DNA of 64,000 nucleotides from a virus (taxonomy: Duplodnaviria > Heunggongvirae > Uroviricota > Caudoviricetes), in the IMG/VR virus record IMGVR_UViG_2671180921_000012, one strand, 5' to 3'. A model generated the notes under the pieces. That model searched no databases, was not told the origin of the DNA, and saw nothing but the letters and a program-made list of their open reading frames with translations. The translations under genes were made by a program, and so were the position numbers. Positions 21,749 to 33,367 of the stretch are shown piece by piece; within the stretch, counting starts at the first letter, position 1; each line of letters starts with the position of its first letter.

Positions 21749-22477
21749 ATGAAAGGCGAAGTGAAAGAGCGCGGCATGATTTTCAACGATGAGATGGTCC
21801 GAGCCATCCTCGAAGGAAGGAAAACGCAGACGCGGCGGATAATGAAAAATCAGCCTGCGGAAGTTGGTCCAGAAGCACCAGTGATGGTTAGGGAAATTGG
21901 TGCAGGTTTTCAGTGGTACGGGGCTGATGGTGTAAGCAGTGTTTTCAATTGCCCCTTTGGTATCGTCGGCGATCGAATTTGGGTTCGTGAAACATGGGCG
22001 ATATTAGGCAATGAAGATGGTTGCAGTGTGGACTGGAACGACAACCTTTGTCGTGGCGATGAGAAGAACGCAGCAAGGATTTATCGGGCCAGTTGTGAGC
22101 AAAAGCCTGGTGATTACGGTTTATGGTCGATACCCGATGATGCCGACTGGAAACCTCACACTGTGAATGAAAAGTTTGATGGTGGGTGGCGTCCATCAAT
22201 TCACATGCCGCGCTGGGCATCACGCATCCTGTTGGAAATTACCAACGTGCGCGTTGAGCGGTTGAACAATATCAGCGAATGCGATGCAAGGGATGAGGGC
22301 GTTCCGCCTGCTGGAAGTTTGCTTCCTGATCACCCGGGAACATTCCTTACTCCCAAGGGGGATTTCGCAATGGCCAAGGTTGCGTTCCAGCGCCTGTGGG
22401 AATCCATCTATGGTGAAGAAAGCTGGAACGCTAATCCCTGGGTGTGGGTAATCGAGTTTAAGCGCATTCAGGAATAA
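21749..22477 (+). CDS. ASCH-like domain protein (242 aa)
   Basis: N-terminal MIFNDEMVRAILEGRKTQTRR resembles ASCH-type motif common in prophages. Confidence 0.4.
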   Translation: MKGEVKERGMIFNDEMVRAILEGRKTQTRRIMKNQPAEVGPEAPVMVREIGAGFQWYGADGVSSVFNCPFGIVGDRIWVRETWAILGNEDGCSVDWNDNLCRGDEKNAARIYRASCEQKPGDYGLWSIPDDADWKPHTVNEKFDGGWRPSIHMPRWASRILLEITNVRVERLNNISECDARDEGVPPAGSLLPDHPGTFLTPKGDFAMAKVAFQRLWESIYGEESWNANPWVWVIEFKRIQE

Positions 22478-22560
22478 ACCGTGAGTATGCATCAAATCGT
22501 CAGTTTTTCAGGTGGACGAGCATCGGCCTGTCTCGTTCATCTGTTCGAATAGGTAGTGGC

Positions 22561-22764
22561 ATGACAATCGTAAAAACCCATACCGGTACCGTGATCACCA
22601 AAGATGGCCCGAAGGTAAAAAAACTGCACCAAACAGAGCGGATGTGGGTCGTTGGCAAAAACGAGTTTTACCACAAAGAAACTGGACGCCGCCATTTTGC
22701 AGAAAATACGCGCCGCCGACTGCTGTTAGACACCATCAAGCCTATCGAGGTGAAGCATGTTTAA
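22561..22764 (+). CDS. Hypothetical small basic protein (67 aa)
   Basis: ORF in operon context. Confidence 0.35.
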   Translation: MTIVKTHTGTVITKDGPKVKKLHQTERMWVVGKNEFYHKETGRRHFAENTRRRLLLDTIKPIEVKHV

Positions 22765-22996
22765 ACAGAACGAAAAAGCTATCGCTCAAATTGCTGATTA
22801 TATCCCGCGTGCGTGCCGGGGTATGCAGTTGCAGGAAGCCAAAGCGCGCCTGGAGAAAAAAATTGCGCTCTATATTGATGACGGCTGTGATGCCGCCGTT
22901 CTTAACGAGGCGTTCGCACCAGCTCTTAACAGTCATACTCGGGAGTCTTTTTTTTCGTGCATCGCAGCGCAACTCCACCAAGGAGGCATCCAGTGA
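22757..22996 (+). CDS. Hypothetical protein (79 aa)
   Basis: Start overlaps upstream stop; stop overlaps downstream GTG start. Confidence 0.4.
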   Translation: MFKQNEKAIAQIADYIPRACRGMQLQEAKARLEKKIALYIDDGCDAAVLNEAFAPALNSHTRESFFSCIAAQLHQGGIQ

Positions 22997-23637
22997 GCAA
23001 CCGTTTTTACATGATGTGTTTGCGTGAAACTGTGGGTAATAACGCCTCATTCCATTGCCATAACGGCAATGGTTACAGTTCTGATATCGATCGCGCTCAT
23101 GTTTACACGCTGGAAGAAGCCCAAAAAGCCTGGAATTGTGGGCGAGATATCGATCAGCCTGTTTGTGCCGATAGTGTGGATGCAATGGCTGTGTGGCACG
23201 TTGATTGCCAGTACATCCCTACAGAAAGCCTGATTGAGTCAGATTGCACTGCGTATGTGGCCTACAAAAAAGGTAGCTGGAACGGCAACGATGTTTACTG
23301 GCTTCAACACGGTGGATTGCCAACCGATGACTTCAGTAAAGCAACCATCTTTAGCGTCGCCAACAAAAACGAACCAGGAATAGTTTGGTTGCCATTTTCC
23401 ATTGCCGATGCAGCAAAGCGGCGGACGTTCAATATCAATAATTTTAACCGCAGAACAATGGTTCAGGGCGCAGGTTTGGTCATGCCTGACTGGTTGAAAA
23501 AGCAAAACAGAAGAAAGAAGTCGCGAAGCGGGAAGGTGCGTTGGAATTGTCCGCATTGCGGAAAAATAACCTGGCAGTACAGCCCATATGATTTTGAAGG
23601 CTGTAGTGATTACAACTGTGAAGGATGGCGAGAATGA
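22993..23637 (+). CDS. Hypothetical Cys-rich protein with C-terminal zinc-ribbon-like motif (214 aa)
   Basis: GTG start with AAGGAGG SD; NCPHCGK ... CSDYNCEG. Confidence 0.45.
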   Translation: MSNRFYMMCLRETVGNNASFHCHNGNGYSSDIDRAHVYTLEEAQKAWNCGRDIDQPVCADSVDAMAVWHVDCQYIPTESLIESDCTAYVAYKKGSWNGNDVYWLQHGGLPTDDFSKATIFSVANKNEPGIVWLPFSIADAAKRRTFNINNFNRRTMVQGAGLVMPDWLKKQNRRKKSRSGKVRWNCPHCGKITWQYSPYDFEGCSDYNCEGWRE

Positions 23638-24500
23638 CAATTGACTATCAGGTACTGCGTGAGGCGGCAGAAAAGGCAACACCAGACGAATGGGTCGCAT
23701 TTATTTCGACGGATACTGGTACTTATGCGGTGCACACGCCCGGTGATGAACGATGTGAAGACGTTATCAAATGGACCGGCTTTGATGGACAGAAAAATGC
23801 AGAGAACAACGCTCGTTATGTTGCCGCGTTCAACCCAAAGGTTGCACTGGAGCTGCTTGGTGAAATTAAGCGCCTGGAGGACACAAATATTGATGCTATG
23901 TGTCGAATTGCAGAGCTTGAGACTAATCTCGCGGCGCTGGCAGCGGAGAATGCGGCGCTGAAGGCCGGGGCTATGTATTTCTCATATGGCTCTGAATTTA
24001 GTTTCGAGTGTCACAAAACTGCTGAGGAGGCTATCGCTGCTGCTGAGGCTGCAATTGACGACTATAGAGGCGATGCTTGCGATGGATGGAGCGAAGAGGT
24101 CGAAAGCATTTGCTGGGGGGTAATTATTCAGCAGGCAACCAAGGTCGGTGAACGCAAGAAGAGGAAATGCGACAGAGTATCACCATGGATTGAAAGAGTT
24201 TGTGATTATGAGCTTCGACCTAATGTCGAAACCCCAGCCACCGATGCTTTCCTGTCTGAAATTCGTGCGGAAGCACGCAACGAGGGGATTAACTATACCG
24301 CCAGCCGTCTTGCTGCTGCGTTCAATCACGGATTTATCAATAAGTCTTTGCGTGAAGTTTTCGACGTTACACGCATGATTTTGTCAGCGAAAGAAGAGTT
24401 GGCTAATGAAGCGCATCCGATTGATGGCCTGTCTGGTGAATATGCGGAGAAATCCCTTGAAGAATGGGCGGAACAGATTCGCAAAGGAAGCAGCCAGTGA
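23625..24500 (+). CDS. Ead/Ea22-like coiled-coil protein (291 aa)
   Basis: N-terminal TIDYQVLREAAEKATPDEW, central coiled coil, C-terminal PATDAFLSEIRA module. Confidence 0.45.
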   Translation: MARMTIDYQVLREAAEKATPDEWVAFISTDTGTYAVHTPGDERCEDVIKWTGFDGQKNAENNARYVAAFNPKVALELLGEIKRLEDTNIDAMCRIAELETNLAALAAENAALKAGAMYFSYGSEFSFECHKTAEEAIAAAEAAIDDYRGDACDGWSEEVESICWGVIIQQATKVGERKKRKCDRVSPWIERVCDYELRPNVETPATDAFLSEIRAEARNEGINYTASRLAAAFNHGFINKSLREVFDVTRMILSAKEELANEAHPIDGLSGEYAEKSLEEWAEQIRKGSSQ

Positions 24501-24787
24501 ATATCGACACGACCGTAACGATCGATACGCTCCTAAATACCGGTCTGGCACTTCTCGGTTGGCTTTACATCATGTCCCGCACATGGCGATGGCTGGGTTC
24601 CATTTTCCTAAAACAGTGGAAAAAACGGCGCAAACAGGAACTACGCCAGAAGGCATTAGAAGCGTTCTATGACGCATTTGAGCTTAGCCGCATTGAACCA
24701 GGTACAACAGCCAGGATAGCGACAAAAGGCGACCTGATGATAGTGATGTTCCGACAGGAGAGAGCAGAGAAAGGGGAATCAGCATGA
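24497..24787 (+). CDS. Small membrane protein (96 aa)
   Basis: GTG start overlapping upstream TGA; hydrophobic helix then basic region. Confidence 0.4.
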   Translation: MNIDTTVTIDTLLNTGLALLGWLYIMSRTWRWLGSIFLKQWKKRRKQELRQKALEAFYDAFELSRIEPGTTARIATKGDLMIVMFRQERAEKGESA

Positions 24788-25518
24788 AATTTTCCAAATT
24801 TTCTGAGTTGGTGAATCGTATTTTGTCCAACAACCACAGCCATCGTCGCGATATGGATGTAACAATCGTTGTTCATTCGCCTGGCAGCATTGGTTCAACA
24901 CCTTCAGTTGAGGTTCAGTCAATTCACGCTGGTTTTGATTGGGATTCCGGGAAAGTGCTTATTTTCCCATCACAGCCACTGACCACGCTAACACCAGAAC
25001 AGATTACTGATATCACTGATAGTGTGCGCAAAGGTCAGTCTTGGCACGCATATCAGGAATACAAGAAGCATCAAGAGCAGTTGGAAAAATTGTCGATTGA
25101 ACTGGATGCCGCAAAACAGCGCATTGCAGAGCTGGAGGGTAATCGCACGGCGCTGGCAGTGGAGAATGAGCTGGCTCGTAAGGCAGTTCAGGCATTCTGC
25201 GATGTTGTTGGCGACAACACCGAGGTTATCGCTGAGGTGGTTGGGCGAGATGGCGTTCTGGTTATTTTGGAGGCCATGAAGGCAACAGGAAATATGCCAG
25301 CCACCGATGCTTTCCTGGCTGAAGTGCGGGCGCAGGGCGTGGATGCTGCTATAGAAGCTGCAAAAAATCTGGTGGCCCAAGAATATGAGTATAAGGATTT
25401 CAAAGCGGCGCAGAGTGATTGCTGTATGCACCCTGGTTCAGACCTGGTAGGGAAGGTTGAAATGACTGAGTGGTTAGTTGACTTTGCTGCCCAGCTTCGC
25501 AAAGGAGGCAACCAGTGA
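24784..25518 (+). CDS. Ead/Ea22-like coiled-coil protein, paralog (244 aa)
   Basis: Shares coiled-coil and PATDAFLAEVRAQ ... QLRKGGNQ C-terminal module with the 291-aa protein. Confidence 0.45.
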   Translation: MKFSKFSELVNRILSNNHSHRRDMDVTIVVHSPGSIGSTPSVEVQSIHAGFDWDSGKVLIFPSQPLTTLTPEQITDITDSVRKGQSWHAYQEYKKHQEQLEKLSIELDAAKQRIAELEGNRTALAVENELARKAVQAFCDVVGDNTEVIAEVVGRDGVLVILEAMKATGNMPATDAFLAEVRAQGVDAAIEAAKNLVAQEYEYKDFKAAQSDCCMHPGSDLVGKVEMTEWLVDFAAQLRKGGNQ

Positions 25519-26003
25519 GCGAAATTAATTACCAGGCACTGCGTGAGGCGGCGGAACGTGCAATTCCAGCAATGGAACGCCTGTTAATGTTGCCAGCTGA
25601 TGATGATTTGTTAAGTGAACAGGAACTTAAAGATTACGGTGTGGATATTGATGCGCTCAACGCCTTCAAATTTCTGGCCGGACCAGAAACCGTGCTGGCA
25701 CTACTGGATGAACGGGAAAGGAACCAGCAATACATCAAATCCCGCGACCAGGAGAACGAGGATATTGCGCTAACGGTAGGGAAGTTGCGCGTTGAGCTTG
25801 AGGCAGAAAAACAGCGGGCAAAGGATCTGTTTATGGAAAATGCTCGGCTTAAGTCAGGTATAGCCGGTCTGATACACCTCGGTATTCGATATGCAGATGT
25901 TGATGTCATGAAAATTGCTGGAGATGCCCAGCTTTCTACCCCATGCACTGACAGCATCATAAACAGCATTGCAACAGGCATTCGCATCAACGGAGGTGAG
26001 TAG
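25515..26003 (+). CDS. Ead/Ea22-like N-terminal-domain protein (162 aa)
   Basis: GTG start with AAAGGAGG SD; N-terminal NYQALREAAERA motif. Confidence 0.45.
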   Translation: MSEINYQALREAAERAIPAMERLLMLPADDDLLSEQELKDYGVDIDALNAFKFLAGPETVLALLDERERNQQYIKSRDQENEDIALTVGKLRVELEAEKQRAKDLFMENARLKSGIAGLIHLGIRYADVDVMKIAGDAQLSTPCTDSIINSIATGIRINGGE

Positions 26004-26175
26004 TGCGTGTGGCATGTATTGGCTTGTTACCGTACCCGACTCGTTTTTGGGCTTCTGCGCTAATTGCAAAGCCACAGGTCCTGATGGCTGACAACATCAC
26101 CCCAGCACCAAAGCGCCGCCATACCGGTATTGCAGCGGCACGACGAGCAGCAAAGAGACGCAGGAGAGCAAAGCG

Positions 26176-26364
26176 ATGAAAAACCGTAAAGCAAAGATTC
26201 TGTTAGTTCGTAGAAACGCTCCTGGCGTCTGGCAGTGGGTGAGACTCAGCAACCGACGGATGGGGTTAATGAAACATTACGGGATGATGGATTGTGGTTT
26301 TTGCAAAAAGCCCAGCGCGGCGCAAAACCGCTGGAAAAACCACTTGCGCACTAAAGGAGAGTGA
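26176..26364 (+). CDS. Hypothetical small basic protein (62 aa)
   Basis: ATG with AGGAGAG SD; stop immediately precedes next gene. Confidence 0.4.
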   Translation: MKNRKAKILLVRRNAPGVWQWVRLSNRRMGLMKHYGMMDCGFCKKPSAAQNRWKNHLRTKGE

Positions 26365-26365
26365 T

Positions 26366-26881
26366 ATGGCGTTAACACACCGCGAACTCTGTCAGATTGC
26401 GTACAAGTTCCTTAAGCGCAACGGGTTCAAGGTTTGTTTTCATGACCGCTTTATAGCTGTAACCAGTACCGGAGAACAGCCAGATGCTATGGGATTCAGA
26501 AATTCAGCATCATGCCTGATAGAGGCGAAATGTTCTCGTGCTGACTTGTTGGCAGATAGAAAAAAGCGTTTTCGTAAAAATCCGTCTCTTGGAATGGGCG
26601 ACTGGCGATTCTTTATTAGTGAGCCGGGAATTATTTCAATTGAGGATTTACCACCTGGCTGGGGATTACTTCACGTTGTTAACGGAAGAGTACGGAAAGT
26701 ACATGGGTGGCCCAAGGGTAATTGCTGTTGGGGTAATCCTGACGATAAGCCATTTACTGGAAATAAGCAGGTTGAATGCGATTACATGTTATCTGCATTA
26801 AGGCGTATGGAGTTGAGAGGGCACCTTAATGAAATATATGACGGTGTAATTGTTAATAAGAAAGAAGGAAACGCGGCATGA
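26366..26881 (+). CDS. MmcB-like PD-(D/E)xK nuclease-fold protein (171 aa)
   Basis: ORF 26294..26881 trimmed to ATG with AAGGAG SD; EQPDAMGF ... CLIEAKCSRADLLADRKK. Confidence 0.5.
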   Translation: MALTHRELCQIAYKFLKRNGFKVCFHDRFIAVTSTGEQPDAMGFRNSASCLIEAKCSRADLLADRKKRFRKNPSLGMGDWRFFISEPGIISIEDLPPGWGLLHVVNGRVRKVHGWPKGNCCWGNPDDKPFTGNKQVECDYMLSALRRMELRGHLNEIYDGVIVNKKEGNAA

Positions 26882-27264
26882 TCACTATTACCAAAGAGCG
26901 ACTGCTGACAATCAAGCAGTGGCGCGAAACATACGGACCTGGTAGCAACGTTGTACTGCCAGCAGAAGAAGCGGAAGAACTGGCACGGATTGCGCTGGCA
27001 TCGCTGGAAGCAAAACCAATAGGTGCTTTCCACATTGCAGAACAGCAGGTCGATGGCACAAGTGACTACATCAAGGATGGGGAGTGGCCTATTGATAATG
27101 GAATTATTGAGGTCTACGCCGCTCCACCCGTTCCAGTAGTACCGGAAGAAAAACCAATGCCTAATCCTCTTAGCATGTACGCGGTTGATGCTGTTGCCGC
27201 TATTGCAGAGGTGAGAGGCTGGAACGCCTGCCGCGCTGCAATGCTTCAGGGAAAAGGAGAGTGA
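26878..27264 (+). CDS. Hypothetical protein (128 aa)
   Basis: Shares ELARIALASLEAKP module with the N-terminus of the downstream DUF551-like protein. Confidence 0.4.
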   Translation: MITITKERLLTIKQWRETYGPGSNVVLPAEEAEELARIALASLEAKPIGAFHIAEQQVDGTSDYIKDGEWPIDNGIIEVYAAPPVPVVPEEKPMPNPLSMYAVDAVAAIAEVRGWNACRAAMLQGKGE

Positions 27265-27265
27265 T

Positions 27266-27475
27266 ATGGCTATTGCCGCAAGTTACACAATGCATCTCTA
27301 TTGTGACTGCCGCCAGTGTACGGAAGGTGTATATCCAGTGCCAGACTTCGGTGAGTATATAGGTACGTCATGGGCTGGCTGTGCAAAAGAGGCGCGCAAG
27401 GATGGCTGGCGAATAAGCAAAGACAAAACGCGTGCTTTTGCGCCTGGGCATAAAGTTTTGAGGATTAACAAATGA
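27266..27475 (+). CDS. Small Cys-rich protein (69 aa)
   Basis: HLYCDCRQC ... GC ... GH cluster; coupled to next gene. Confidence 0.4.
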   Translation: MAIAASYTMHLYCDCRQCTEGVYPVPDFGEYIGTSWAGCAKEARKDGWRISKDKTRAFAPGHKVLRINK

Positions 27476-28419
27476 CCACTATTACCAGAGAACAAGCTCT
27501 GAAAATTATTGAGGCAGCCGATGAGGTTATTAGTGCGCTGGCCGGAACTAACGAGGATGTTCACCCTGGTAGCGATAACATGCTACGCCTGTGGGATGAC
27601 CTGAATGACCGTTACGCGCCGCCGGAAATTGTGCGTGAACTGGCACGGATTGTGCTGGCATCGCTGGAAGCCGAGCCTGTTCTGTATCAGTCCTGCACTC
27701 GCCCCACCTGGAATAGCGGTGTTCCGTGGACGGAATGGAAAGAACGAAGTCGTGAGTGCTACGAAGACGATTTGCGCTTTACAGACACGCCTGACCATGC
27801 CGGTTGGATATACAAATGTCGAAAACTATATACCACTCCGCCAGCGCCGATAGCGTTAGAGGCCATTGAAAACGCAATTGAATACATCCGCAGTATCGCT
27901 TTTCACATCGATGAAGACGATTACCACGGCAAACATATTGCGTATTTCATGCAGCAAGCATTGGCCTGGCTGGAAGGGCATTCATGCAGCGACGACAGAC
28001 TGGGTAAAGCCGAGAATCAACCAGTACGCGGCAACCAGGCTGCCGAATCCAATCGCGATAATGAGTGGACTGGCAATCCTGATATTGATAACGCCATCAT
28101 CATGCTCGACCGCATAGATACGCTGGAAAATTGCGATGATGACCGTATTGAGGCTGTTAAGGCTGTTTTGCGTAGACTGGCTGGCAACTATCCGGTAATT
28201 CCGGATGGTTGGATAAGCTGTAGTGAGCGAATGCCTGAGAACATTCCCGGAAGTTGTAAAGAGTATCTGGTGTTTGATGGGCTTAATAATAAAGTTCATC
28301 ACGATTACTGGGTTGTCCCTGATGGAGACAGTGCGCCAGTTGCGTCGTTCTGGAATCATTACGGGGCACATGTAACTCACTGGATGCCTCTACCAGAACC
28401 GCCGCAGGAGGCGAAATGA
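27472..28419 (+). CDS. DUF551-like prophage protein (315 aa)
   Basis: C-terminal DGWISCSERMPE ... HYGAHVTHWMPLPEPP typical of DUF551. Confidence 0.5.
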   Translation: MTTITREQALKIIEAADEVISALAGTNEDVHPGSDNMLRLWDDLNDRYAPPEIVRELARIVLASLEAEPVLYQSCTRPTWNSGVPWTEWKERSRECYEDDLRFTDTPDHAGWIYKCRKLYTTPPAPIALEAIENAIEYIRSIAFHIDEDDYHGKHIAYFMQQALAWLEGHSCSDDRLGKAENQPVRGNQAAESNRDNEWTGNPDIDNAIIMLDRIDTLENCDDDRIEAVKAVLRRLAGNYPVIPDGWISCSERMPENIPGSCKEYLVFDGLNNKVHHDYWVVPDGDSAPVASFWNHYGAHVTHWMPLPEPPQEAK

Positions 28420-28676
28420 TGGATGTAAAAGAGAAGGTTTTGCAGGTGATGCGTTCCCGGGCTGCCCTGCAAGATAAAGCTCTCGGCGGGAAATATCCAT
28501 TCAGGATGGCAACCTGGAATCTGCGGTTGGCAATGGAGAAGGAATTTCCTGATGAAGAATGGCGTTCGGCAGATTTGCGCAAAATTCTTATGGAGATGGC
28601 TAAAGATGGAACAGTATCCAAAGATACCCATGCCAGCCGGATTGGTCAGGCGGTATGGAGACTGGAGGTGAGGTAA
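28416..28676 (+). CDS. Hypothetical protein (86 aa)
   Basis: ORF with start overlapping upstream stop. Confidence 0.35.
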   Translation: MMDVKEKVLQVMRSRAALQDKALGGKYPFRMATWNLRLAMEKEFPDEEWRSADLRKILMEMAKDGTVSKDTHASRIGQAVWRLEVR

Positions 28677-28752
28677 TAAGCTGGCCTGAAGCATTTGCGA
28701 TTGTAGGCGTAGCTATGGCGATTGCCGCTATTTTTATCTTCTGGGGGTAACG

Positions 28753-28986
28753 ATGGGAAAATTAACTTTTGTAGTCGAATTTGAGGATGGCAAAGAGCCA
28801 CCTGTTAGCGCCAATCTTGATGTTGCTGGTGGCAGGCTGGTTTCGGTTCTATTTGGTGATTACCGCGACGACTTCTTTCAGCCTGAAGAAGTTGATGTAG
28901 TGCGAGAAGCATTAAACGAGCTAAGTGTTGATAACGATGATGCTCATGCGGAAATCATCAAAAAAATGGAACTGCTAACTCACTAA
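28753..28986 (+). CDS. Hypothetical acidic protein (77 aa)
   Basis: ORF preceded by RBS-like sequence. Confidence 0.35.
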   Translation: MGKLTFVVEFEDGKEPPVSANLDVAGGRLVSVLFGDYRDDFFQPEEVDVVREALNELSVDNDDAHAEIIKKMELLTH

Positions 28987-29034
28987 ATTATCAATTATGG
29001 TGCTATCACCTACGACACCGAGAGAAAATTTATA

Positions 29035-29157
29035 ATGTCAAAAGTAAATGTTTTGATTTTTTCAGCAATTGTTGGCTTTGGTTTTACTGCCGGAGTGCAG
29101 ATTTATATTACGTGGGAAAAAATCATCAACTACGCATGGAGTTGTTTTATTAAGTGA
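29035..29157 (+). CDS. Putative 40-aa single-TM membrane peptide in AT-rich islet
   Basis: MSKVNVLIFSAIVGFGFTAGVQIYITWEKIINYAWSCFIK; stop overlaps GAGG SD of next gene; below ORF-track size cutoff. Confidence 0.35.
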   Translation: MSKVNVLIFSAIVGFGFTAGVQIYITWEKIINYAWSCFIK

Positions 29158-29164
29158 GGTAAGT

Positions 29165-29458
29165 ATGTGGAGAGGTAATAATCATGGCAAAAGCCAGATG
29201 ATACTTACCGAATATAAGCTAGACCACAAAACCAATAAATCACGCTCAGTATATTTGCTCCGGCACAATAGCCGCGTAAGAAATACCGTGCTGGAACAAA
29301 ATCTGACAGTTGAAATGGATAATTGCGGGGGATTCAAGCCAACAATTTCGCTTGATGATTTTCCTCGTGGTTTAAGCGAAAGAGAAGCAATGCTGAAATT
29401 AGCAGAATGGCTACAAAGATTAAGCATTGCTATTGAAGATAACTGGTCTGAACCTTAA
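29165..29458 (+). CDS. Hypothetical protein in AT-rich islet (97 aa)
   Basis: ORF 29069..29458 trimmed to ATG at 29165 with GAGG SD; markedly AT-rich. Confidence 0.4.
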   Translation: MWRGNNHGKSQMILTEYKLDHKTNKSRSVYLLRHNSRVRNTVLEQNLTVEMDNCGGFKPTISLDDFPRGLSEREAMLKLAEWLQRLSIAIEDNWSEP

Positions 29459-29692
29459 ATTTATATGATGACACTAAAACATTTTCTTGACCGCCCATTA
29501 TGGGCGGCAGCCGCAGGCTATGACTTTAATTATATGGATTGCATGTCTTGTACTGCCAATGCATACGACCATTCGTTCATCCTGCTGTTTAATTCTTTAA
29601 GAATATTGCCGGAAACAGTATTTCTTAGGTGATGGAATGACTGATATTGCCAAAATGAACATTGAAGAATGGACTAAGGAATGTGAAAAGAA

Positions 29693-30316
29693 ATGGCGCA
29701 AAAAGAAATGACCAGAATCACTGAAGAGCGCATATCAGAGATTATTTCCCGTATCGAAATGTATGGTCACGGTGCTGGATATACGGCAGATGAAGTATTG
29801 GAAATAGCCCAGCAGATGCTGGCCTTGAGACAAAAAGAGCAACATGAAAGCAATACGTGTAGATTGAATTTTGAGCAGTGGCTGGAACAGCAACGCGGGA
29901 AAATCGATGTGGACTGTGGTTGTGTGTCCACTGAAACATTCATGCACTGGCTGCGGGTAGCTTACGAGGCTGGCAACTATCCGGATATTCCGGATAGTTC
30001 GGCGCAAGCACCAGGGAAGGGGGGCTTCCCCGGAGAGCGGATTCGAATTAAGCCGCATGTTTACCGTGAACTGGTTAACCGCCTCCACGATACAGCGATC
30101 AAGTGTGCTGGCACCCAGCAATTACGGGAAAGAATTAGCCGCGTTTTGGGCGAAGTTATTACACCAGATCGTCATAAACAAGCCGAGAAAAGCGGTCTGG
30201 AAAGGAGTCATCTTGAAGCGGCATTAAACATTAAACCGGGGCATACGCTAGGTGTCATTGATGCCATGTTGGTTCATGAAATGGCTAAGGCGTTATTGCC
30301 ACTGGAGGCTGATTAA
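29693..30316 (+). CDS. Hypothetical protein (207 aa)
   Basis: ORF with ATG start; no recognisable motif. Confidence 0.4.
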   Translation: MAQKEMTRITEERISEIISRIEMYGHGAGYTADEVLEIAQQMLALRQKEQHESNTCRLNFEQWLEQQRGKIDVDCGCVSTETFMHWLRVAYEAGNYPDIPDSSAQAPGKGGFPGERIRIKPHVYRELVNRLHDTAIKCAGTQQLRERISRVLGEVITPDRHKQAEKSGLERSHLEAALNIKPGHTLGVIDAMLVHEMAKALLPLEAD

Positions 30317-30350
30317 ATTCCGGATAAAGCTGATATCTGATCACCATGCT

Positions 30351-30381
30351 AAAATCCCCTCAATTCACAGAGGGGATTTTT
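30351..30381 (+). terminator. Strong terminator-like hairpin immediately upstream of the lipoprotein-hot genes
   Basis: AAAATCCCCTC-AATTCACA-GAGGGGATTTT followed by T-run; ends 5 nt before the ATG at 30386. Confidence 0.55.
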
Positions 30382-30385
30382 GTAT

Positions 30386-30652
30386 ATGTTGCGTAGATTT
30401 TTAGGTAAAAGCGTTATTGTCGGTGCGATGTTGGCTATGTCTGGGTGTGCTATGGTGCAATACAATGACGGAGAAAAGGTTAGCATCCAGTCAGATGGTT
30501 GGTATGGCCTGGATAGCCTGCAAAAAACAGCGGATAAAGCCTGCCAGCAATACGGAAAGTCTAAAGCCGTATATCAGCATAGCGCGAACGCTAACCCTCA
30601 TCTTGCGCCCGGTTCGGGTGTTCAGAATACCATCTGGAAATGTGAGCCTTAA
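30386..30652 (+). CDS. Lipoprotein (88 aa)
   Basis: ORF 30380..30652 trimmed to ATG; signal peptide with lipobox LAMSGC. Confidence 0.55.
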
Positions 30653-30654
30653 AC

Positions 30655-30903
30655 ATGAGCGACTGGAATATTGCAGCCAAAAGTCAGGAAGAACGGGATA
30701 AGGTTAACGTAGATCTGGCTGCCAGCGGTGTGGCGTACAAAGAGCGATTGAACATACCAGTCATAGCGGAACAGGTGGCCAGGGAACAACCTGAGCACTT
30801 GCGTGCATATTTCATGGAAAGACTACGTTATTACCGCGAGCAGAGCGTGAAACTACCAAAAGGAAGTGATCCGGTATATCAAAAGGCAGATCCACAAAAA
30901 TAA
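30655..30903 (+). CDS. hot: DNA polymerase III theta-subunit homolog (82 aa)
   Basis: [36 protein letters not shown] closely matches recalled E. coli HolE. Confidence 0.85.
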
Positions 30904-30978
30904 GCCTTTTCAATAAGCTATATCACCACCAGCTAAAAAATACATTCTGACTTGCATGAAATGCGCCCTTTAGCGATA

Positions 30979-30998
30979 TACTGTATATAAACACAGTA
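30979..30998 (+). promoter_or_regulatory. LexA (SOS) box upstream of humD
   Basis: TACTGTATATAAACACAGTA fits CTGT-N8-ACAG; 16 nt upstream of humD. Confidence 0.75.
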
Positions 30999-31014
30999 TT
31001 TAGGAGGGCGTATA

Positions 31015-31407
31015 ATGGGATTCCCATCACCAGCAGCCGATTTTGCTGAAAGCAGAATTTCGCTTGACGCACAATTCATCAAACGACCAACCGCAACATA
31101 TTTCATGCGGGCCGCCTGCTCACATCTCCGTGAGGGGATTTTGCAAGGTGCAATGCTGGTGGTTGATTCATCTCTTCCACCACTGGATGGTTCTCTACTC
31201 ATATGTGCCGTAGAGGGAGAATTTCGCGTAAAGCGATACCGCAAGCATCCTCGCCCACACCTTGAGGATCTGGAAAGCGGAAGACGTGAGTCACTGCCAG
31301 ATGATGATGACAGCAGCTATTCCGGGAGTCAGGCCATATTCGGGGTAATCACATACATCATTAACGATGCCAGGAGTGGGGAATTTGATGATTGCCCGGT
31401 GATTTAA
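31015..31407 (+). CDS. humD: UmuD-prime-like translesion synthesis accessory protein (130 aa)
   Basis: GFPSPAADF ... ATYF ... similar to recalled UmuD lacking the N-terminal cleaved segment. Confidence 0.8.
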   Translation: MGFPSPAADFAESRISLDAQFIKRPTATYFMRAACSHLREGILQGAMLVVDSSLPPLDGSLLICAVEGEFRVKRYRKHPRPHLEDLESGRRESLPDDDDSSYSGSQAIFGVITYIINDARSGEFDDCPVI

Positions 31408-33337: not shown

Positions 33338-33367
33338 ATTGCTCTAATGTATTGCTATTTCTTTAAT
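33338..33367 (+). promoter_or_regulatory. Overlapping C1 operator-like sites upstream of lpa
   Basis: ATTGCTCTAATGTATTG followed by overlapping ATTGCTATTTCTTTAAT; TTGACA at 33405. Confidence 0.6.

Follow-up and report, generated by a model that had tools for sequence, protein, structure and literature searches.

Reference P1 carries only pmgT, pmgU, pmgV, upfM, upfN and upfO between pap and hot, in 2.3 kb, whereas the same interval measures 9.1 kb in the P1-like phage-plasmid sequence analysed here (the window; 64,000 nt, IMG/VR record IMGVR_UViG_2671180921_000012). What are the additional genes, how are the two forms of the locus related, and what controls it? An earlier note, made from the sequence alone, had rightly stated that P1 has few genes at this position and described positions 23625-30316 as an expanded, variable cargo region of moron modules like those of lambdoid prophages. 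We conclude that this interval is probably the central part of an early operon of about 8.8 kb, a counterpart of the lambdoid ea region that P1 has in a deletion form. The exact sequence is already public, as E. coli plasmid CP088789.1 matches the window at 100% identity.

Gene content of the block

The interval 23625-30316 contains 13 well-supported plus-strand genes (E to Q) and three marginal ORFs (26003-26179, 29035-29157 and the remnant 29465-29632), and all 16 ORFs match a PHROG phage family (Table 1). The packed plus-strand arrangement described earlier was confirmed; of the small Cys-rich and membrane proteins named there, L is Cys-rich and small hydrophobic ORFs are present. Eight junctions of the block have 4-nt start/stop overlaps. 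Three are CAGTGA junctions (a GTG start over a TGA stop), exactly where the earlier note placed them at 22994, 24498 and 25516, and the other five are ATGA overlaps (23634, 24784, 26878, 27472 and 28416). All three CAGTGA junctions lie in a conserved 27-nt repeat that includes the Shine-Dalgarno sequence AAGGAGG. GC content departs from that of the backbone only at 29-30 kb. The 58-aa Arg-rich ORF is doubtful as a gene. The parent of the 55-aa remnant is a 124-aa membrane-protein gene, with a 128-bp deletion between 10-bp near-repeats. Upstream of the interval, gene A has no Pfam match at E<=0.01; its orthologue in pNR329_1 is named 'ASCH domain-containing protein' by PGAP.

Table 1. Features of the locus, in order of position in the window.
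Feature	Position	Strand	Remarks
C1 operator OpmgT/Op88 (21554-21570) overlapping PpmgT promoter segment	21554..21603	+	proposed operon start
Hydrophobic ORF, 28 aa	21652..21738	+	AGGAG Shine-Dalgarno; annotated 44-aa form of relatives has an in-frame stop here
Gene A, 242 aa, ASCH-like	21749..22477	+	phrog_874; first 232 aa correspond to P1 PmgT 1-232
Segment missing from reference P1, 7.5 kb	22444..29961	+	single junction at P1 85182
Gene B, 67 aa	22561..22764	+	phrog_1226, full length; annotated in CP088789
Gene C, 79 aa	22757..22996	+	phrog_1344; conserved 27-nt junction repeat (D1) at its end
Gene D, 214 aa	22993..23637	+	confident predicted fold; basic helix; C-terminal Cys4 zinc ribbon
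Gene E, 288 aa, Ead/Ea22-like	23634..24500	+	PF13935, E=3.5e-19; phrog_368
Gene F, 96 aa, DUF4752	24497..24787	+	PF15944, E=2.2e-42
Gene G, 244 aa, Ea22-related	24784..25518	+	phrog_368, E=1.9e-75
Gene H, 162 aa, Ead/Ea22-like	25515..26003	+	PF13935, E=7.6e-33
Arg-rich ORF, 58 aa	26003..26179	+	phrog_13831; dN/dS 0.63; not annotated in CP088789
Gene I, 62 aa	26176..26364	+	phrog_1380, full length; dN/dS 0.17
Gene J, 171 aa, candidate PD-(D/E)xK nuclease (Hjc-like)	26366..26881	+	invariant D40, E53, K55
Gene K, 128 aa	26878..27264	+	phrog_5117, full length; N-terminal module as in M, C-terminal domain differs
Gene L, 69 aa, Cys-rich	27266..27475	+	phrog_926; dN/dS 0.11
Gene M, 315 aa, N-terminal module and C-terminal DUF551	27472..28419	+	PF04448 at aa 246-312; phrog_60
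Gene N, 86 aa	28416..28676	+	'eaa protein' in deposited annotation; dN/dS 0.33
Gene O, 77 aa	28753..28986	+	phrog_3876; dN/dS 0.02
Hydrophobic ORF, 40 aa, marginal	29035..29157	+	annotated in SJ46
Gene P, 97 aa	29165..29458	+	phrog_1258; dN/dS 0.21
Pseudogene remnant, 55 aa	29465..29632	+	phrog_2638, positions 1-51 of 120
Gene Q, 207 aa	29693..30316	+	phrog_21459, phrog_60; N-terminal module related to K and M
Hairpin, 11-bp stem, then T-run	30351..30380	+	strongest plus-strand hairpin; proposed operon end
Gene R, 88-aa lipoprotein	30386..30652	+	phrog_7757; invariant lipobox G20-C21, plus C53 and C86

Three Ea22-like paralogs had been proposed. E and H pass the Pfam Ead_Ea22 profile, but a search of G against it gave no match, and G joins them through PHROG 368 and through DNA modules that it has in common with E. 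G and E have similar coiled-coil and C-terminal modules, and the DNA repeats D1, D2 and D5 occur in both genes. Lambda Ea22 is 56% identical to H over the N-terminal 78 aa of H (tblastn, E=2e-24). Ea22 has been described as a modular protein whose C-terminal domain varies (PMC7093339, PMC3824215, PMC10834534). In the second family, K is 37% identical to M over 70 aa (blastp), with repeats D4 and D6, and repeat D7 is common to Q and M. The earlier label of DUF551 proteins holds for M, which carries the domain, but not for K and Q, which share only its N-terminal module.

Conservation of genes D and J, at 48-88% identity, spans many enterobacterial genera and for D reaches Acinetobacter. The predicted fold of D had no match among solved structures. 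J had been called MmcB-like, which was not confirmed; J has invariant D40, E53 and K55, and 14 of 29 relatives gave sub-threshold matches to Pfam Hjc. The motif stretch of J also has a weak profile match to PDB 3dnx, its AF2 model is poor (pLDDT 61) and its dN/dS is 0.053. J is possibly a PD-(D/E)xK nuclease.

Long and deleted forms of the locus

Collinearity with P1 breaks at one P1 coordinate. P1 PmgT is a fusion of 232 aa of gene A (98.7% identical to PmgT 1-232) with an out-of-frame read into gene Q, and PmgU corresponds to the last 100 aa of Q (88% identity to Q 107-204). Apart from the three P1 reference records, the P1-type junction was found in only 5 of 218 plasmids, and about 98% of the plasmids matching the junction probe keep the block. 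Within a comparison panel picked by similarity to the query, the junction flanks lie 5.5-7.7 kb apart in all nine relatives, and the slot from pap to humD measures 6.0-10.9 kb in 10 other elements against 3.3 kb in P1. P7 is also of the long form, and a C1 operator is annotated in it as 'Op(hea)'. On this sequence comparison the long form is the norm and reference P1 is a rare deleted form, so that the genes are indeed absent from P1 but the term "expanded" had the direction wrong. P1 would have lost 5.5-7.5 kb by illegitimate deletion, an event that would have produced the fused PmgT ORF and reduced PmgU to a truncated remnant. The segment from pmgT to humD has been listed as variable region 8 of P1-like phage-plasmids, and pmgT has been called 'replaced' in relatives (PMC9603915); in the accounts of this variable region that were consulted we found no statement that pmgT and pmgU of P1 are deletion products.

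The expectation of variable cargo was borne out by presence and absence over 12 related loci, which is cassette-like and even sub-genic, with extreme turnover between backbones that are otherwise 93-99% identical. The present cassette set has 100% query coverage in only three PLSDB plasmids. Breakpoint clusters coincide more often than expected with gene boundaries (17 of 37; expectation 24%; p=0.003) and with shared modules (12 of 37; expectation 18%; p=0.03). Alternative cassettes in the slot encode PAPS-reductase-family, dATP/dGTP pyrophosphohydrolase-domain and ASCH proteins, and roughly 30% of P1-like phage-plasmid genes have been classed as 'recombining genes' that other mobile elements also carry (PMC10879196). 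The operon would be built of interchangeable cassettes and two modular families with swappable C-terminal domains (E/G/H and K/M/Q), and recombination in shared modules and at the conserved junctions between genes would shuffle its content. Purifying selection acts on the genes, with a pooled dN/dS of 0.146 (0.02-0.05 for D, J and O; pairwise values that are not phylogenetically independent), and nearly all orthologues have intact reading frames.

Transcription signals around the block

The C1 operator at 21554-21570 has one mismatch to the consensus, and a further operator-like site follows only at 33338. Positions 21554-21603 are identical to the annotated P1 operator/promoter, and this 50-nt segment has 0-2 mismatches in 11 of 11 P1-type loci, whatever their cargo. 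A consensus scan, which can overlook internal promoters, detected no internal C1 operator and no internal plus-strand promoter match in 23625-30316. The only two plus-strand promoter-like sites are at 21526 (PpmgT region) and 30988 (ahead of humD); six were observed on both strands, compared with 13.9 expected by chance. The hairpin at 30351-30380 was found only in loci that also carry gene R, and four weaker terminator-like matches all lie within genes. Because the block stands behind a C1 operator/promoter, lacks internal matches to an operator or a plus-strand promoter and is closed by a hairpin, it is most likely a single C1-repressed early operon rather than a set of morons. This operon is named pmgT in P1 and 'hea' in P7. 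The earlier bounds need revision, since the segment absent from P1 extends over 22444-29961 and the transcription unit would start upstream at 21554.

Transcription would begin directly after pap, span genes A to Q, with ribosomes handed on across the 4-nt overlaps, and stop at the hairpin terminator. Under such control by C1 the genes should stay off in the plasmid prophage and be expressed upon infection or induction. Repression through a monovalent C1 operator may be leaky. Gene R lies just beyond 23625-30316, beside hot, and occupies the place of pmgV and upfM-upfO in P1.

Role of the block and its lambdoid counterparts

Searches of the block proteins with PADLOC, Pfam and NCBIfam gave no functional assignment and no defence match. 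[quoted passage not shown] Host nucleic acids or defences are possible targets of some cassettes, for example of J, as a candidate nuclease, and of D, with its zinc ribbon. A rival idea, that the block is mainly counter-defence cargo whose early products shield the entering or induced genome by inhibiting or evading restriction, abortive infection or nucleotide signalling and whose turnover is driven by defence diversity, is compatible with the early repressor-controlled position, the extreme cassette turnover, the nucleotide-handling enzymes among the alternative cassettes and the nuclease-like motif in J. A phage dATP/dGTP pyrophosphohydrolase (MazZ), reported to inhibit host restriction enzymes, carries the DUF551 signature as well (PMC10834534). 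Compared with the preferred role, the timing would be the same and the target alone would differ. We consider it unlikely, as no protein matches a characterised anti-defence family, PADLOC matches are at chance level, and experiments on the lambdoid region show effects on lysis/lysogeny and host physiology rather than immunity evasion.

Lysogenic conversion or superinfection exclusion, as suggested in the earlier note, with genes active in the resident plasmid prophage for the benefit or protection of its host, is quite improbable in view of the control region. The entire block stands behind a conserved C1 operator, internal plus-strand promoter matches are missing and terminator-like matches are weak and intragenic, most intergenic gaps are too small for independent transcription units, GC follows the backbone except at 29-30 kb, and the homologues in lambdoid phages belong to the PL early operon (the early-left exo/erf-int region) rather than at late-region moron positions. 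In its favour are the adjacent lipoprotein R behind its own terminator, presumably similar in general form to phage exclusion lipoproteins, the occurrence of the same contents in prophages of pathogenic E. coli, and the link to oxidative-stress tolerance reported for YfdS, a cryptic-prophage protein with DUF551 (PMC4776307, PMC10834534). The block could also be functionless hitch-hiking DNA, left by recombination with co-resident lambdoid prophages and tolerated in a non-essential slot. P1 thrives without it, pmgT to upfO are non-essential in P1 (PMC10695390), and there is some decay, namely the 55-aa remnant and PGAP pseudogene flags in near-identical plasmids. IS elements have inserted in the slot (ISVsa5 in CP122640 and IS903 in P7), and an rve-family transposase interrupts the homologous region of an Stx2c phage. 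Given the low pooled dN/dS, the intact frames, the wide conservation of D and J and the retention of the block in nearly all junction-probe plasmids, we give this reading very little credence.

The preferred reading, a C1-controlled early operon, would make the block the P1-family counterpart of the non-essential early-left ('exo-xis' or 'ea') region, with near-identical genes exchanged with lambdoid phages. The lambdoid likeness noted earlier was confirmed: two Stx phages have block genes, at 96-99% identity, in the slot that runs from exo/bet or erf to int and follows the cI-type repressor region. Ea22 of SJ46 is 86% identical to that of lambda, and homologues of lambda orf63, which is not in the window, occur in three P1-like elements at 73-75% identity. 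Neither the window nor any P1-like locus examined contains ea8.5, orf60a, orf61 or orf73; only ea22 (everywhere) and orf63 (some elements) are shared with lambda's own exo-xis region. Genes of that region are transcribed early and affect lysogenisation and induction (PMC7093339, PMC3824215, PMC10834534).

The finding is real and largely ordinary, being the usual repressor-controlled accessory block, swapped with lambda-like phages, in a variable region that is already published. It resembles the pmgT-humD variable region of P1-like phage-plasmids in its pap-hot/humD position, strand and C1 operator/promoter. P7 encodes a D homologue (upf87.6), a protein like Ead (upf88.3) and a long version of PmgU. 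Like phage morons, the genes are accessory, horizontally exchanged and non-essential; unlike morons, the cassettes appear to lack individual promoters and terminators and to be translationally coupled in an early operon. With the lambdoid exo-xis and P22 'ea' early-left regions the block shares a repressor-controlled early operon of small, overlapping, dispensable genes and modular Ea22/Ead proteins, but it has no flanking recombination or integration genes, and its control is by P1 C1 rather than the CI/PL/N system.

The P1-like slot and its deleted form in P1

Three plasmids match the interval 23625-30316 at 100% identity, among them the E. coli plasmid CP088789.1 (pB16EC0630-4), an IncY plasmid of 91 kb from human blood. 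The flanks of the slot run collinear with P1 (95-98% identity), so the window represents a natural P1-like phage-plasmid. The deposited annotation of CP088789.1 lists ead/Ea22-like, DUF4752, DUF551 and "eaa" proteins together with many hypothetical proteins. Between pap and hot we count 18 plus-strand genes that are annotated or well supported, and label them A to R. The tightly packed gene block described in the earlier note is real, with 13 supported genes (E to Q) and three marginal ORFs in 23625-30316. Every ORF, small ones included, matches a PHROG family, all of them without known function, and none of the 20 ORFs matched NCBIfam. A search of the block against Rfam identified no structured RNA (one match, E=0.88). 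GC content is 47-51%, as in the flanks, with the exception of 40% at 29-30 kb; apart from this dip, comparison with the flanks and backbone revealed no foreign base composition.

The block had been regarded as an expansion relative to P1, which was described as having only a handful of genes between pap and hot. P1 does carry pmgT, pmgU, pmgV, upfM, upfN and upfO there and nothing else, but the direction of the change is reversed. Using blastn, window 18001-22443 aligned to P1 80739-85182 and window 29962-30311 to P1 85182-85528; P1 lacks 7.5 kb of the window at one coordinate, inside pmgT. The P1 PmgT protein (309 aa) joins residues 1-232 (of 242) of gene A to 77 residues that derive from the 3' part of gene Q in a different reading frame, and P1 PmgU corresponds to the C-terminal 100 residues of Q (88% identity). 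Judged by these alignments, P1 pmgT is a fusion and pmgU a fragment, both artefacts of a deletion. A 201-nt probe spanning the P1 junction matched end to end only in the three P1 reference records and in 5 of 218 plasmids; in all other records the alignment breaks at the junction. Both junction flanks are present, 5.5-7.7 kb apart, in 9/9 relatives examined. The slot from pap to humD measures 3.3 kb in P1 and 6.0-10.9 kb in ten other elements; the slot of the window (9.5 kb) is typical, and phage P7 has the long form, including a D homologue and an Ead-like protein. The rarity of the junction, the long slots of relatives and the long form in P7 therefore argue that the block is not an expansion and that P1, in its reference form, is a rare deletion derivative.

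The P1 junction has only 1 nt of microhomology. Deletion through a 32-nt repeat found in genes M and Q was considered and ruled out, as no such repeat is present at the left breakpoint in gene A. The five plasmids with the P1-type junction (NZ_CP117630, NZ_CP063350, NZ_CP063505, NZ_AP027878 and NZ_CP157116; 100% over 201 nt) came from natural isolates, with a crane (E. albertii), human rectal swabs and faeces, and a culture as sources, and the PLSDB tables list no protein-coding gene at their junction. Because the same junction occurs in these environmental and clinical plasmids, the deletion may circulate in nature too and is perhaps not a laboratory artefact. On the right of the slot, lxr and a second minus-strand gene (present in P7 and some plasmids) are missing between hot and humD, and DNA identity to P1 is only ~73% for humD and ~84% for hot, so this flank is a different allele set as well.

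P1 serves as a model phage and as a standard tool of genetics, and hundreds of clinically relevant P1-like phage-plasmids are measured against its reference genome. At this slot the reference is an atypical deleted form. Once this is recognised, annotation transfer is corrected, as is the "replacement" wording of comparative papers, such as the description of pmgT in JL22 as "replaced by a gene cluster" (PMC9603915). The stretch pmgT-humD has been published as variable region 8 of such phage-plasmids (PMC9603915). A CRISPRi screen found pmgT to upfO to be non-essential, with upfM left out of the test (PMC10695390). Conserved early proteins of the long form (D, J, the Ea22-like set and K/M/Q) have stood outside P1 laboratory genetics.

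Coordinates of features in the window and in comparison loci (L005, L007, L009 and L012; L009 is Salmonella phage SJ46)
Feature	Coordinates	Location or remark
pap	21048-21554	left flank
C1 operator OpmgT/Op88	21554-21570	window
Leader hairpin	21603-21625	window
44-aa "membrane protein" ORF of relatives	21605-21739	window
28-aa hydrophobic ORF	21652-21738	window
Gene D	22993-23637	window
55-aa ORF (pseudogene)	29465-29632	window
Hairpin with T-run	30351-30380	window
Gene R	30386-30652	window
hot	30655-30903	right flank
Segment without lxr and second minus-strand gene	30903-31015	window
humD	31015-31407	right flank
PAPS-reductase-family protein	L012 1569-2441	sibling cassette, same slot
dATP/dGTP pyrophosphohydrolase-domain protein	L007 7629-8315	sibling cassette, same slot
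Small ASCH protein	L005 8713-8994	sibling cassette, same slot
Lambda orf63 (DUF1382) homologue	L007 2473-2664	sibling cassette, same slot
SJ46 Ea22	L009 4510-5190	P1-like phage

Transcriptional organisation

The block lies between pap and hot/humD on the pap strand, as does the P1 pmgT operon (named "hea" in P7). An operator for the P1 repressor C1 is located directly after pap, with one mismatch to the consensus, and the next operator-like site is at 33338. Over 50 nt, the operator/promoter segment matches the annotated P1 element without a difference and has 0-2 mismatches in 11/11 P1-type loci, whatever cargo lies behind it; the depositors of P7 annotated the same site, Op(hea), as the control of the "hea operon". 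A consensus scan returned two promoter-like sites on the plus strand, at 21526 (the PpmgT region) and at 30988 (before humD), and none in 21556-30987; counting both strands, six sites were observed compared to 13.9 expected by chance. The block has no match to 8-mers of the type CACTATAA, a guess at the -22 box of P1 late promoters; the four such promoters annotated in P1 look different, so this negative carries little weight. The only strong plus-strand hairpin followed by a T-run is located just past Q, and other terminator-like matches are weak and intragenic. The three CAGTGA start/stop junctions that had been noticed, at 22994, 24498 and 25516, are all present, and five ATGA overlaps bring the total to eight 4-nt overlaps.

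Together, the C1 operator, the lack of an internal plus-strand promoter match, the terminal hairpin and the eight overlaps point to one C1-repressed, translationally coupled early operon of ~8.8 kb. As read from the operator, this operon would be repressed in lysogens and derepressed on induction. The suggestion that the cassettes are moron modules does not hold: morons have their own promoter and terminator per cassette, whereas the cassettes of this block showed no plus-strand promoter match and only weak intragenic terminator-like matches, and are joined by 4-nt gene overlaps.

The operon leader contains a hairpin with an 8-bp stem that is terminator-like on the minus strand only. In the window, the 44-aa ORF that relatives have annotated as a membrane protein is interrupted at codon 3 by an in-frame TAA, leaving a 28-aa hydrophobic ORF with a good Shine-Dalgarno sequence.

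Mosaic cassettes and their proteins

A gene-by-locus matrix revealed presence and absence of both whole cassettes and parts of genes, on a backbone that is 93-99% identical. This cassette-like distribution, together with genes 96-99% identical in Stx phages, bears out the description of a variable, lambdoid-related cargo slot. Across P1-like phage-plasmids, ~30% of genes have been classed as "recombining genes" (PMC10879196). Sequence modules recur within the block: a 27-nt junction module (SD-GTG-TGA) with which C, E and G end, N-terminal and coiled-coil modules common to E/G/H and to K/M, and a 32-nt linker common to M and Q. Homology breakpoints in 12 loci fell into 37 clusters, 17 of which are no more than 40 nt away from a gene boundary (24% expected, p=0.003) and 12 at common modules (18% expected, p=0.03). 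This enrichment is consistent with recombination at junctions and linkers that are conserved. It also agrees with a published description in which Ea22 comprises an N-terminal segment, a coiled coil and a C-terminal domain that varies, and DUF551 is a "portable" domain (PMC10834534). IS insertions in the slot were seen in CP122640 (ISVsa5) and P7 (IS903).

Most of the genes appear to be under purifying constraint. The pooled dN/dS of full-length orthologues (Nei-Gojobori) is 0.146, with values of 0.02-0.05 for D, J and O; only a 58-aa Arg-rich ORF (0.63) and gene C (poorly sampled, six substitutions) are seemingly unconstrained. A 55-aa ORF is the remnant of a gene for a 124-aa membrane protein that is intact in most sibling elements, and became a pseudogene by a 128-bp deletion between the 10-bp near-repeats CCGGAAACAG and CCGGAAAAAG. 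In near-identical plasmids, PGAP flags pseudogenes at the positions of J and K.

Three Ea22-like paralogs had been proposed. E and H match Pfam Ead_Ea22 (PF13935) with 70.2 and 114.5 bits (cutoff 27); G does not pass, and its tie to Ea22 is through phrog_368 and DNA modules common with E. The DUF551 domain (PF04448), proposed for more than one protein, was found in M only (52.5 bits, cutoff 22, aa 246-312); K and Q have the N-terminal module of M and lack the domain. F matches Pfam DUF4752. The family of J, which is spread over many enterobacterial genera, has invariant D40, E53 and K55 in a PD-(D/E)xK-type motif. J itself had no match in Pfam, and the MmcB-like identity proposed earlier was not confirmed for it; 14 of 29 relatives match Hjc, a PD-(D/E)xK resolvase, below threshold (best E=0.003), and the best match of a J profile in PDB was weak (3dnx, E=0.23). 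The AF2 model of J has a pLDDT of 61, too poor for fold comparison, and sequence searches of PDB with A and J gave no significant match.

The fold predicted for D has high confidence (pLDDT 93) and found no structural counterpart in PDB or among annotated viral models; D also has a Cys4 zinc ribbon that is conserved. Its P7 homologue upf87.6 is annotated as a "putative tyrosine protein phosphatase", an assignment that we reject: in D, the C-X5 is without a following Arg, the Cys/His are not conserved, and fold searches returned no phosphatase-like structure. R is an 88-aa lipoprotein of a small unnamed enterobacterial family in which the lipobox (G20-C21) is invariant and two further cysteines are conserved. 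Its gene lies 2 nt upstream of hot, where P1 has pmgV and upfM-upfO instead, and is always accompanied by the hairpin past Q. R is a candidate for a surface-acting (exclusion-type) function.

Relationship to the lambdoid exo-xis region

Parts of the block recur in 538 phage records, for the most part Stx-converting phages, as well as in 3,411 of 5,426 complete E. coli genomes. Two Stx phages among our comparison loci (L004 and L014) carry the homologous genes between recombination genes and xis/int. In the annotated Stx2a phage they lie between exo/bet and xis/int in PL-operon orientation. An Stx2c phage has D, parts of E/G/H, the 58-aa ORF, I, J, the 5' part of K, and N at 96-99% identity. 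There they are interrupted by an IS and lie between an Erf recombinase and an integrase adjoining the att site at sbcB, landmarks that were assigned by Pfam on ORFs; the Stx2a bet, exo and int proteins as queries found no landmarks in this phage.

The lambdoid exo-xis genes are early and dispensable, and influence lysogenisation and induction (PMC3824215, PMC7093339). Titles and abstracts from a partial coverage of the literature contained no connection between exo-xis or Ea22 and P1. An ea22-family gene is a feature of exo-xis that the block has as well (E and H), and lambda Ea22 is 56% identical to H over residues 1-78. Using tblastn, the lambda ea8.5, orf60a, orf61, orf63 and orf73 proteins had no match in the window. 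Homologues of orf63 (73-75% identity) occur only in three sibling P1-like loci (L002, L007 and L011), and the other four proteins in none of the P1-like loci examined. On this mixed comparison, the block would seem to work like the exo-xis or "ea" region and to trade genes with it, without being a copy of it. In SJ46, Ea22 is 86% identical to lambda Ea22 over residues 15-182, near full-length; the match includes the C-terminal domain described as distinctive of lambda Ea22 (PMC10834534).

The best-supported account is that of a C1-repressed early accessory operon, by analogy with the lambdoid early-left region. Its products probably influence the host or the choice between lysis and lysogeny, a mechanism that, beyond the transcriptional logic, we infer. 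Counter-defence roles are possible for some cassettes; PADLOC component models gave no significant match (two chance-level matches, E=0.0016 and E=0.0036, 13-15 bits). Going further than the early accessory operon itself, we tentatively suggest, as a rather unlikely reading, that the pmgT/"hea" operon is the plasmid-prophage functional analogue of exo-xis, setting lysis/lysogeny, host replication state or defence evasion, with P1 as a natural deletion mutant. If true, P1 with the block restored would differ measurably in lysogenisation, induction or host range, and D and the two protein families whose C-terminal domains can be swapped would represent new effectors that target the host.

This kind of system is known already and no new kind is revealed. 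The block and the lambdoid exo-xis region differ in position, the exo-xis genes lying between exo/bet or erf and xis/int and the block instead between pap and hot/humD. The near-identity of the genes of the block to the early-left genes of Stx phages is a concrete case of genes passing between plasmid-prophages and the integrated lambdoid prophages that share their hosts.
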